Positions 5,938-8,900 of a stretch of 15,111 bases of DNA are shown here, piece after piece (positions within the stretch are counted from its first letter, which is position 1; each line of letters starts with the position of its first letter). Origin of the DNA: a virus (lineage: Duplodnaviria; Heunggongvirae; Uroviricota; Caudoviricetes); IMG/VR virus record IMGVR_UViG_2529293044_000014, positions 1-15,111 of that record; one strand, given 5' to 3'. A program made the position numbers.

Positions 5938-8900
5938 TGACATGAACGTACTAAAAAAACTTATGCAGCGTCTGTGCGGGTACGGAAAGCATGATGACCG
6001 TGAACACGGGGAGTTACTTACAGCACAACTGCGTCTGGGGCCGGCAGACATCCTGGAGTCAGATGAGAATGGTATTATTCCGGAGCAGGCCAGGGTAATC
6101 ACGCAGGTGGTGATACTGGATGCAGATAAAAAGCAGATACAGTGTGTGGTAAGACCGCTGCAAATCCTGCGTGCTGACGGGACGTGGGAAAATATTGGCG
6201 GGATGAAATAGCCGACGGGTTCACAAAAAAACCGGAGTCCGGCTCCGGTTTTTGTTGTCATGCCATGGTGATGTTTGTTATGACTCCCTGTGTTTGGAAT
6301 GAATATTTAAATAGGGAGTTTTGTCATGCCATCATTAGTTTCAGGTATTCAATCATCCTCACTTTCCACCGGAATGCAGGTTCTTCGTGCTCAAATGGCC
6401 GCCAGTGGTGGTGGAGAAATTACAGTAGGCGGACAGACGGTTAGTATCACATATAGTGAAACGGATGGTCGCTTTCTGGCGAGTGGGGGCAATAACAGTT
6501 TGCTTTCTGGATTATTACTTACAGGGCTTAATGGTGGTCCTGAAGCGCTCAGGGATATAATGTTAAGAATGGTTTCAGGTTCAGGTAACACACAATCACA
6601 TGGTGATATTGAGGGGAAAATATCACAATATAAGTTTTCGGTTAATACGCAGAGCCTTCAGTGCCCATCCGAGGCGGTTCGATGCCCAATTATACTGGAT
6701 AAGCCAGAAGAAGGTGTGTTTGTTAAAAATTCAGAAGATTCTTTGGTTTGTACCTTATTTGATTCGGTTTCTTTTTCTCATTTGGTTCGTGACGGTGGGA
6801 GGCACCCGCTAACACGAGAACCAATAACGTCATCAATGATTGTAAGTCCAGAACAATGTATTTATGACCAAGCCAAAGGAAACTTTGTCATAAAGGATAA
6901 GTGAAATAAATATTACCCAAGCTATATGTTAACTGCCAGTTGCTTATATGAAATGCTACAGATGTTCAGGGTATAAGGATGTGGTAATAACACAGGTGGT
7001 GTACTGGATGCAGATAAAAAGCATATACAGTGAGTGGAGAGGCCGCTAATCAGTCGTGCTGACGGGGAAATATTGGCGGGATGAAATAGCCGACGAGTTC
7101 ACAAAAACCGGAGTCCGGCTCCGGTTTTTGTTGTCATGTCCGGTGGATGTTTGTTAGGAAAGCAAAGATGGCAAAACTGCTGGAGGTTTTGTGGTTGAGT
7201 ATGCCAATATAATTAATAGATTAAAGAGTTAGTTGTGAAGAAAATATGGATAAACAGGACGACGAATGCTTTCACCGATAAGGACAACTTTCCATAACTC
7301 AGTAAATATAGTGCAGAGTTCACCCTGTCAAACGGTTTCTTTTGCAGGAAAGGAATATGAGTTAAAGGTCATTGATGAAAAAACGCCTATTCTTTTTCAG
7401 TGGTTTGAACCTAATCCTGAACGATATAAGAAAGATGAGGTTCCAATAGTTAATACTAAGCAGCATCCCTATTTAGATAATGTCACAAATGCGGCAAGGA
7501 TAGAGAGTGATCGTATGATAGGTATTTTTGTTGATGGCGATTTTTCAGTCAACCAAAAGACTGCTTTTTCAAAATTGGAACGAGATTTTGAAAATGTAAT
7601 GATAATCTATCGGGAAGATGTTGACTTCAGTATGTATGACAGAAAACTATCAGATATTTATCATGATATTATATGTGAACAAAGGTTACGAACTGAAGAC
7701 AAAAGAGATGAATACTTGTTGAATCTGTTAGAGAAAGAGCTGAGGGAAATTTCAAAGGCGCAGGATTCTTTGATTTCTATGTATGCAAAGAAAAGAAATC
7801 ATGCATGGTTTGATTTCTTCAGAAATTTAGCCTTATTAAAAGCAGGAGAGATATTCAGGTGCACATATAATACAAAGAATCACGGTATTTCATTCGGGGA
7901 GGGGTGTATCTATCTTGATATGGATATGATACTTACAGGTAAGCTTGGTACAATATATGCTCCTGATGGAATTTCAATGCATGTGGATCGTCGTAATGAT
8001 AGTGTAAATATTGAAAATAGTGCAATAATTGTTAACCGTAGTAATCATCCTGCTCTACTTGAGGGACTTTCTTTTATGCATAGTAAAGTAGATGCTCATC
8101 CATATTATGATGGTTTGGGGAAAGGAGTTAAGAAATATTTTAATTTTACACCATTACATAATTATAATCATTTTTGTGACTTTATTGAGTTTAACCACCC
8201 TAATATAATCATGAACACAAGTCAGTATACATGCAGTTCATGGTAAATGAATTTGATATAGTTTATTTTGTTGTAATAAATGATTTGCAGGGTATTAGAT
8301 ATAAACATGAAAATTCCCTCATTACAGTCCAACTTCAACTTTTCCGCCCCGGCAGGATACTCTGCTCTGAGAGATCCCCTCATAATTTCCCCAAAGCGTA
8401 ACCATGTGTGAATAAATTTTGAGCTAGTAGGGTTGCAGCCACGAGTAAGTCTTCCCTTGTTATTGTGTAGCCAGAATGCCGCAAAACTTCCATGCCTAAG
8501 CGAACTGTTGAGAGTACGTTTCGATTTCTGACTGTGTTAGCCTGGAAGTGCTTGTCCCAACCTTGTTTCTGAGCATGAACGCCCGCAAGCCAACATGTTA
8601 GTTGAAGCATCAGGGCGATTAGCAGCATGATATCAAAACGCTCTGAGCTGCTCGTTCGGCTATGGCGTAGGCCTAGTCCGTAGGCAGGACTTTTCAAGTC
8701 TCGGAAGGTTTCTTCAATCTGCATTCGCTTCGAATAGATATTAACAAGTTGTTTGGGTGTTCGAATTTCAACAGGTAAGTTAGTTGCTAGAACCCATGGC
8801 TCCTTTGCCGACGCTGAGTAGATTTTAGGTGACGGGTGGTGACAATGAGTCCGTGTCGAGCGCTGATTTTTTCGGCCTTTAGAGCGAGATTTATACAATA

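Follow-up and report, generated by a model that had tools for sequence, protein, structure and literature searches.

The subject of this study is a small open reading frame (ORF) at positions 5942..6211 on the + strand of a viral DNA sequence of the Caudoviricetes with a length of 15,111 nucleotides (IMG/VR record IMGVR_UViG_2529293044_000014, positions 1 to 15,111), which is referred to in its entirety as the window. The small ORF encodes a stand-alone Phage_fiber_C (PfC) protein of 89 aa followed by a stop codon, and it belongs to the same family as PHROG 576, ORF68 of the Shiga toxin 2 (Stx2) phage Sp5 and gp59 of phage phi24B. It is a genuine protein-coding gene, the last one in the late (tail) operon of a prophage, and its product is very probably a real, separately translated partner of the tip of the side tail fibre encoded directly upstream. 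Among the roles considered, an accessory function at the fibre tip is the best fit, and our overall reading, to which we assign a probability of about 0.45, is that the protein acts as an accessory subunit of the fibre tip that is translated on its own and is not essential; there is less support for an essential chaperone, for a fusion by frameshifting or for a reservoir for recombination. Neither the small ORF nor its paralogy to the fibre end is new, both being known and annotated, and an earlier reading of the raw sequence by a model, referred to here as the original prediction, rediscovered both correctly. The present analysis adds the two-way linkage of ORF and fibre, selection estimates, the corresponding pair in Salmonella, peptides from a public supplement and a role of the ORF at the junction to the effector cargo.

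The similarity between the small-ORF protein and the fibre knob is well beyond chance. In a BLASTP comparison with the ORF encoding the C-terminus of the fibre (5569-5940), 23 of 62 residues are identical (37%) with 61% positives and E=2e-13, and the aligned 62 aa take in the RLGPA...DG.W pattern from which the paralogy had originally been read. Residues 28-89 match the Pfam family PF06820 (Phage_fiber_C) over positions 1-64 of 64 with 119.2 bits (E=1e-34), and the fibre peptide matches the whole 64-position model with 126 bits (E=6e-37), the curated cut-off of the family being 25 bits. Twelve positions are invariant across both paralogues, including L-D, L-Q and D-G-x-W. The small ORF has neither a shaft nor an attachment domain and represents a stand-alone form of the domain, preceded solely by a 27-residue extension. 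The original prediction, correct in its paralogy claim, did not recognise the product as a named protein, and in this point it has to be amended: residues 1-89 match positions 1-89 of 89 of PHROG 576 (“tail fiber protein”, an 89-position profile) with E=3.8e-59, the RefSeq name is “phage tail fiber C-terminal domain-containing protein”, and the gene is in print as ORF68 of Sp5 (Mondal et al., 2016, PMC5155283). The same gene is gp59 of phi24B and “atfT” of AU6Stx1. PF06820 and PHROG 576 are its only matches among Pfam, NCBIfam and PHROGs; no NCBIfam model matches it, and no Tfa family is found among the matches.

The gene is common in Escherichia and its family is narrow elsewhere. A 771-bp DNA segment comprising the 3′ end of the fibre gene and the small ORF was matched in 731 of 5426 complete E. 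coli genomes, with a median of 12 places per positive genome, and the small ORF was found in 296 deposited phage genomes, mainly those of Shiga toxin (Stx)-converting phages. Its annotations vary between “tail fiber protein”, “hypothetical protein”, “tail fiber assembly chaperone” (lambda h434 imm21) and “alternate tail fiber tip” (AU6Stx1). Among 1.84 billion cluster representatives, an exhaustive profile search retrieved only 88 matches, mostly fragments and chimeras of the same family, and no informative distant family apart from the tandem repeats of the protein P0146 described below. The named family matches come from E. coli, E. albertii, Citrobacter rodentium and Salmonella enterica. 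In a scan of 185,579 species genomes, matches were confined to E. albertii and a 725-bp contig labelled Xanthomonas pisi (NZ_JPLE01000138.1, strain DSM 18956), which encodes a 90%-identical copy of the small ORF and is most likely a contamination of the Xanthomonas assembly.

The organisation of the locus is that of a translated gene at the end of an operon. The small ORF extends from the ATG at 5942 to the TAG at 6209-6211, and a Shine-Dalgarno sequence, AGGAG at 5931..5935 (+), is located 6 nt before this ATG within the last codons of the fibre gene, whose TGA stop codon (5938-5940) precedes the ATG by 1 nt. This junction, CAGGAGAATGACATG, with the Shine-Dalgarno sequence and the ATG of the small ORF, is kept in 50 of 54 distinct upstream contexts. 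Downstream, an intrinsic terminator of the bidirectional type at ~6224..6257 (+), a hairpin of A-run, GC stem and T-run with -21.7 kcal/mol (repeat I1/D4), marks the end of the late operon, before the type III effector cargo begins, and the same motif lies no more than 80 nt past the small-ORF stop in 73 of 75 related loci. The ribosome-binding site and terminator that the original prediction had ascribed to the ORF are therefore both present.

The family is strictly linked to one type of fibre. Two samples of E. coli prophage loci were used, an ORF-anchored sample of 76 loci fetched from IMG/VR with the small ORF, and a fibre-anchored sample whose loci were picked by the N-terminal domain of the fibre and were hence unselected for the small ORF. 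In the ORF-anchored sample, all 76 copies are preceded by a fibre PfC, which ends within 6 nt of the small-ORF ATG in 74 of them, while in the other two the alignments end a few residues short. Conversely, 50/50 PfC-ending fibres of the fibre-anchored sample are directly followed by the small ORF, with the spacing of the window in 46 and 1 nt closer in 4; by strict coordinates the ORF is intact in 45 of these 50, and some of the remainder show slips in an A7 run near its start. The small ORF is also absent from all 4 loci in which the fibre lacks PfC and enough downstream sequence is available. It follows the EPclA fibres of long-tailed prophages as well as the EPclB fibre of short-tailed Stx phages, and in lambdoid prophages of S. 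enterica an orthologue of 79 aa follows a collagen-free fibre of the PfN-Phage_fiber_2 (Pf2)-PfC type. Irrespective of the type of shaft or tail, the small ORF is thus inherited as one unit with fibres that end in PfC, and the conservation and synteny proposed as a check alongside the paralogy hold in both samples and in Salmonella. At one of the four loci without a fibre PfC (L083, 3995-5834), the same fibre N-terminal domain is combined with a Peptidase_S74 end, an intramolecular chaperone, followed by a gene for a 185-aa protein with a Gp38_N adhesin domain that replaces the small ORF; here, the end module of the fibre and the gene behind it appear to have been swapped together.

The Salmonella orthologue overlaps the last codons of its fibre gene; an AGGAGG precedes its ATG by 7 nt, and a similar terminator lies downstream. 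Between E. coli and Salmonella, the small ORFs are 58% identical and the fibre PfCs 35%. As the pair was kept in both genera, the duplication must be old, and both copies were retained through changes of shaft and tail type. In assemblies of S. enterica (L166, 3888-7240; L161, 110-974), such lambdoid prophages carry J, a GDSL esterase-like gene, the PfN-Pf2-PfC fibre and the 79-aa orthologue, with SopA/NleL-like and NleG-like genes downstream.

The sequence variation shows that the knob part of the small ORF is under strong purifying selection, with a ratio of non-synonymous to synonymous substitutions (dN/dS) of ~0.06. A first estimate was biased, as the loci had been chosen by similarity to the small-ORF protein, and it was repeated on the loci chosen by the fibre N-terminus, which gave values of 0.06 (PfC part), 0.40 (residues 1-27) and 0.27 (PfC of the fibre itself) at a dS of ~0.10-0.15; these values are summed pairwise estimates on recombining sequences and hence approximate. 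Variable sites in the PfC part are distributed over the three codon positions as 5:5:17, and by column counts this part is significantly more constrained than the N-terminus (p=0.03). The copy downstream of nleG discussed below, which has decayed to ~81% identity with frame-breaking insertions and deletions, serves as a neutral control for lost selection. It illustrates that partial copies of this region arise and decay (6983-7159), and the partner fibre is broken in the window, so that the small ORF might be thought of as a functionless relic of a partial fibre duplication that is open by chance. This is highly improbable in view of the dN/dS of 0.06 for the PfC part at a dS of ~0.15, the retention of the pair across Escherichia and Salmonella at 58% identity, and the detection of peptides of the protein. 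For the family as a whole the relic is largely refuted, and for the single copy in the window it is possible, because the fibre is broken there.

Evidence for the protein itself comes from purified phi24B virions, for which the supplementary peptide table of a cryo-EM and proteomics preprint lists the peptides VITQVVILDADKK and ADGTWENIGGMK, found in the small ORF only, with 3 spectra each, as compared with 38 and 47 spectra for two peptides of the fibre PfC (10.64898/2026.04.10.717836). The supplement labels the entry “Spike or just gp59?”, and the main text is silent on the gene (10.64898/2026.04.10.717836). The small-ORF protein is accordingly made and co-purifies with virions at a low level, either free or fused. 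A mass-spectrometry paper on phages of enterohaemorrhagic E. coli (EHEC) does not mention it (PMC12502783). The genetic evidence comes from a systematic in-frame deletion study of Sp5 in K-12, in which the fibre ORF67 was essential and ORF68 non-essential, plaques and lysogens being formed without the latter (Mondal et al., 2016, PMC5155283).

In phage lambda, tfa occupies the slot after the side-fibre gene stf, which is the position of the small ORF. A transient assembly chaperone like lambda Tfa, which helps the C-terminal knob of the fibre to fold or trimerise and then largely leaves, would agree with this position, with the annotation as “tail fiber assembly chaperone” in one GenBank record (OM418627) and with the low level of the protein in purified virions, and a homologous domain could plausibly template folding. 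However, the EPclA fibre was produced, trimerised and refolded in E. coli expression strains without the small ORF, both the whole fibre and PfC alone being trimers, the latter according to size-exclusion chromatography with multi-angle laser light scattering, and once the collagen helix has been melted, it is nucleated anew by PfC (Ghosh et al., 2012, PMC3368898). In addition, ORF68 is listed as non-essential in Sp5 whereas the fibre is essential, and the small ORF shows no similarity to the known Tfa families of Pfam, NCBIfam and PHROGs. A transient chaperone is therefore unlikely, and a strictly required one, as could be understood from the chaperone-like assembly factor of the original prediction, is disfavoured by the trimerisation of the fibre without the small ORF (PMC3368898) and the dispensability of Sp5 ORF68.

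Relative to the fibre gene, the small ORF lies in the +1 frame, which in 48 of 54 contexts is open over ~46 codons upstream. A programmed +1 ribosomal frameshift shortly before the fibre gene ends would give a longer fibre ending in the small-ORF domain, as implied by the annotation “alternate tail fiber tip” (KU977420), and the phi24B authors included hypothetical fusion proteins in their search database. We found no paper behind the frameshift annotation in the literature on “atfT” and AU6Stx1. Mondal et al. found no frameshift signal (PMC5155283); we recognised no canonical +1 site near the fibre end by eye, a dedicated pseudoknot search not being part of this inspection. The codon before the stop, GAA, would be expected to re-pair poorly in the +1 frame, and a shift at an earlier site would break off the knob of the fibre itself in mid-domain. 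A +1 frameshift of the prfB type at GAA-TGA-C was considered as a candidate and rejected on account of this poor re-pairing and what would be the wrong spacing to the Shine-Dalgarno sequence. In Salmonella, a stop codon is located one codon upstream of the orthologue ATG in the frame of the ORF. Finally, peptides of the extreme C-terminus of the fibre are ~13-fold more abundant than small-ORF peptides in phi24B, and no peptide spanning the junction of fibre and small ORF was found in the part of the phi24B peptide table that was covered. Overall, we consider a frameshift fusion, a claim at the level of annotation only, to be very unlikely.

Another explanation was put forward for Sp5 by Mondal et al., who suggested ORF68 as a reservoir for fibre variation (PMC5155283), that is, a silent cassette whose recombination with the fibre PfC swaps the fibre tip. 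In its favour, the two PfC copies are direct repeats sharing CGTCTGGGGCCGGC (repeat D7) and chimeras exist: the cluster P0063 combines collagen with the small-ORF PfC, and P0121 combines the small-ORF N-terminus with the fibre PfC. On the other hand, a PfC of the small-ORF type was found in 0 of 50 sampled fibres, the sole collagen-fusion cluster found (P0063) has 4 member sequences, and the cassette keeps its own Shine-Dalgarno sequence, ATG and N-terminal segment under strong selection at the amino-acid level in its present place. Furthermore, a single, nearly invariant variant would hardly contribute to diversity, a swap would amount to a deletion that cannot be reversed, no recombinase or invertase ORF is present between J and nleG, and no inverted repeats bracket the PfC copies. 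Overall, we consider a reservoir quite unlikely. The exchangeable tip envisaged in the original prediction has been proposed by others as well, but natural fibres with the small-ORF knob are very rare (0/50 and one 4-member cluster).

It was also considered whether the protein acts away from the fibre, either as a free knob that is released at lysis and masks receptors or debris as a decoy, or as a factor of the lysogen. Such roles would be compatible with its dispensability for plaque formation and lysogenisation in Sp5, its high conservation and its location at the border of the effector cargo region. The sequence shows neither a signal peptide nor a lipobox with a hydrophobic core, no promoter-like site was detected inside the fibre gene upstream of the small ORF, and PADLOC gave no defence-family match. 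The strict linkage to PfC-type fibres rather than to a particular cargo also argues against a cargo-related function, and a role outside the fibre is improbable. The small ORF as a lipoprotein or signal peptide was rejected as a candidate, with Lys, Arg and Gln occupying the place of the hydrophobic core and cysteines that are not kept in Salmonella.

The protein can be divided into three segments. Residues 1-17 (5942..5992, +) form a short basic amphipathic segment, MNVLKKLMQRLCGYGKH, with a helix predicted at residues 3-11 by AlphaFold2 with low confidence, and the pattern M-x-I-[LF]-KK-[LI]-x-x-x-L-x-G-x-x-K in this N-terminal segment is common to the Salmonella orthologues. Residues 18-27 (5993..6022, +) represent a variable linker that is predicted to be disordered, with a predicted local distance difference test (pLDDT) score of <50 for residues 13-26 and a dN/dS of 0.25-0.40 for residues 1-27; a 10-residue stretch of this linker is missing from the Salmonella orthologues (alignment A5). 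The PfC domain proper comprises residues 28-89 (6023..6208, +), corresponds to PF06820 positions 1-64/64 with a dN/dS of 0.04-0.06, and is all-beta according to the predicted strands. Only the secondary structure of the AlphaFold2 models was used, as pLDDT was too low to trust the fold. A Foldseek search of the PDB with the better small-ORF model gave nothing (best E=2.1), and a sequence search of the PDB gave no relative of the small-ORF protein. The phi24B authors likewise obtained no confident AlphaFold model for the PfC domain (10.64898/2026.04.10.717836).

An accessory subunit of the fibre tip could work as follows. The small ORF would be translated separately from its own Shine-Dalgarno sequence, coupled to translation of the fibre, and its product would form a trimeric knob of its own without being mixed into the fibre trimers. 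Such mixing is improbable because of the identity of 37%, and it would poison the fibre trimers. Once the fibre is assembled, the small-ORF trimer would bind non-covalently to the distal PfC knob and serve as a cap, adaptor or helper that can be dispensed with, in effect as a second, separately encoded knob, perhaps with its basic N-terminal arms held against the acidic C-terminal tail of the fibre, and it would be needed neither for trimerisation of the fibre nor for laboratory infection of K-12. This specific cap or adaptor mechanism is tentative, with slightly less than even odds in our estimate. In a more far-reaching form, which we regard as doubtful, the outermost knob of the side fibre would be encoded as a separate polypeptide derived from a duplicated trimerisation domain, and the free trimer would either dock end-on as a split tandem knob or tether the fibre tips elsewhere on the virion, thereby tuning adsorption or fibre deployment on natural hosts. 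The fibre tips of phi24B point back towards the capsid.

Several points weigh against an accessory subunit. The deletion of ORF68 in Sp5 caused no reported defect (PMC5155283), and any role is hence conditional or small. The small-ORF peptides in phi24B virions are few and could be carry-over. The AlphaFold2 models of the small-ORF protein reached mean pLDDT values of just 53 and 60 with alignments of 9 and 17 rows, respectively. The small-ORF domain is more conserved than the fibre's own knob, which is unusual for a receptor-binding tip; in terms of constraint, the PfC of the small ORF and that of the fibre do not differ significantly by column counts (p=0.23), so that a significant difference, as might be taken from the dN/dS values of 0.06 and 0.27, was not retained. 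The stacking of knobs and the complementarity of charges are suggestions drawn purely from the protein sequences, and it is by inference rather than from experiment that we ascribe fibre binding, trimerisation and a place on the virion to the small-ORF protein.

Comparison with known systems helps to place the family. The closest relatives, Sp5 ORF68, phi24B gp59, “atfT” of AU6Stx1 and WP_001024006.1, share the full-length family match, the slot after the fibre and the terminator with the copy in the window at 90-97% identity. In contrast to these relatives, the window copy carries the minor substitutions V3, Y14 and A50, and its partner is a frameshifted fibre of the shorter EPclA type. The PfC of the EPclA and EPclB fibres belongs to the same domain family (PF06820), and the prediction of an all-beta domain matches the circular-dichroism result for PfC (PMC3368898). 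The small ORF differs from it by an identity of 37%, the lack of a shaft, its own N-terminal extension of 27 residues and the lack of an acidic C-terminal tail, and trimerisation has been shown for the fibre PfC alone. With lambda Tfa, Mu Tfa and P2 gpG, it has in common a gene position directly behind the side-fibre gene, where the tail operon ends, and by analogy an interaction with the distal end of the fibre is likely common to them. Unlike these proteins, to which it has no sequence relationship, the small ORF is a paralogue of its presumed client, and it is not required in Sp5. Adhesins of the Gp38 type (T2, S16 type) are also small, separately encoded proteins in the same slot, as in the case of L083 with its S74-end fibre and Gp38_N gene; they show no homology to the small ORF, which is highly conserved and lacks hypervariable segments. 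Invertible tail-fibre cassettes (Mu G, P1 C, e14 Pin) differ in that the small-ORF locus has no recombinase and no flanking inverted repeats, and the PfC copies are direct.

A further relative is P0146, a metagenome-derived cluster representative of 565 aa, which is collagen-like and contains four tandem PfC-related units of ~70-77 residues with the motif VVVLDAD...ILQVRRADGTW (E=1e-11). These units indicate that such domains can sit in series along a fibre; in P0146 they are covalently linked and upstream of the collagen region. P0146 is a hint at a wider family of repeats, of which PF06820 would be the terminal member.

In the window, the partner of the small ORF is a side tail-fibre gene of the EPclA type at 4620..5940 (+), with matches to Pfam phage_tail_N and Collagen, and Collagen and Phage_fiber_C. 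The EPclA architecture consists of an N-terminal attachment domain (PfN), a coiled coil, a collagen-like shaft and PfC (Ghosh et al., 2012, PMC3368898). The PfC domain of the fibre itself is encoded at 5713..5904 (+); behind it come an acidic tail and the stop codon at 5938-5940. A G-run at 5591..5594 (+) contains an extra, frameshifting G (GGGG as opposed to GGG in the enteropathogenic E. coli (EPEC) strain E2348/69), as a result of which the gene reads as two ORFs, 4620-5747 and 5569-5940, and the knob is not joined to the rest of the fibre; the orthologue in E2348/69 is intact with 437 aa. Either the fibre gene is a pseudogene, in a prophage undergoing decay, or the extra G is a sequencing error in the homopolymer. 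With its fibre broken, the small ORF in the window probably lacks its partner and is likely idle.

The window is collinear with the torT-adjacent prophage of E2348/69, the shared order being J, lom, fibre, small ORF, nleG (DUF1076), nleB2, nleC, nleD and torT. A 402-aa transposase (DDE_Tnp_1; 8380-9588, -) is inserted between nleB2 and nleC and is not found at this position in E2348/69. Between nleC and nleD, a 57-aa ORF (10702-10875, +) has no Pfam match, and at its site E2348/69 carries a C-terminal fragment of NleH annotated as a pseudogene. At the right end of the window, a transposase of the IS66 family (13547-15073, -) adjoins what are apparently the C-terminal 66 codons of torR (13280-13480), which suggests that torR was truncated by the IS66 insertion; torR of E2348/69 at the same position is a 693-nt gene.

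Downstream of nleG, a decayed second copy of the 3′ part of the small ORF (~codons 52-89) with a second terminator is present at 6983..7159 (+), the corresponding first segment being 6094-6283, so that the duplication noted in the original prediction is confirmed. The two segments share 80-95% identity in blocks, with deletions of 1, 3 and 7 nt that break the frame, and as direct repeats of the small-ORF 3′ part and terminator they bracket nleG. This second copy recurs, ~1040 nt downstream, in about one tenth of the related loci. In Escherichia phage Lambda h434 imm21 (L164, 4640-5000), the intact ORF and terminator run directly into the upstream sequence of nleB, and in the window the same nleB upstream sequence follows the decayed copy; from these two junctions it can be concluded that a unit of ORF 3′ end, terminator and nleG was added there by recombination. 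The cargo downstream of the small ORF varies among the ORF-anchored loci, with nleG in 30, nleC in 8, nleB in 2 and other genes in 23. The small ORF with its terminator is thus the junction at which effector cassettes (nleG, nleB, nleC and others) are exchanged. The record of this laboratory lambda/434 hybrid (OM418627.1, 3186-8148) comprises a collagen-like side fibre of the EPclA type with the small ORF, and type III effector genes or fragments annotated as NleB-like, NleC-like and NleH1-like together with a second zinc metalloprotease at the position of nleD in the window; their order matches that of the window and E2348/69.

For the window itself the finding is ordinary, namely the copy of a catalogued gene in a prophage with a broken fibre. 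Its significance lies in the family, as collagen-like fibres sit on Shiga toxin phages and on effector-carrying lambdoid prophages of EHEC, EPEC, E. albertii and C. rodentium. The small ORF with its terminator marks the exact boundary of the cargo, which can help to annotate effector loci and to trace them. A small partner of the fibre tip that is strongly conserved and strictly inherited together with the fibre offers an obvious and cheap handle on what these fibres bind, and if the split tandem knob or the tether were true, the small-ORF protein would represent a new kind of fibre accessory protein, unlike the Tfa chaperones and the Gp38 adhesins.

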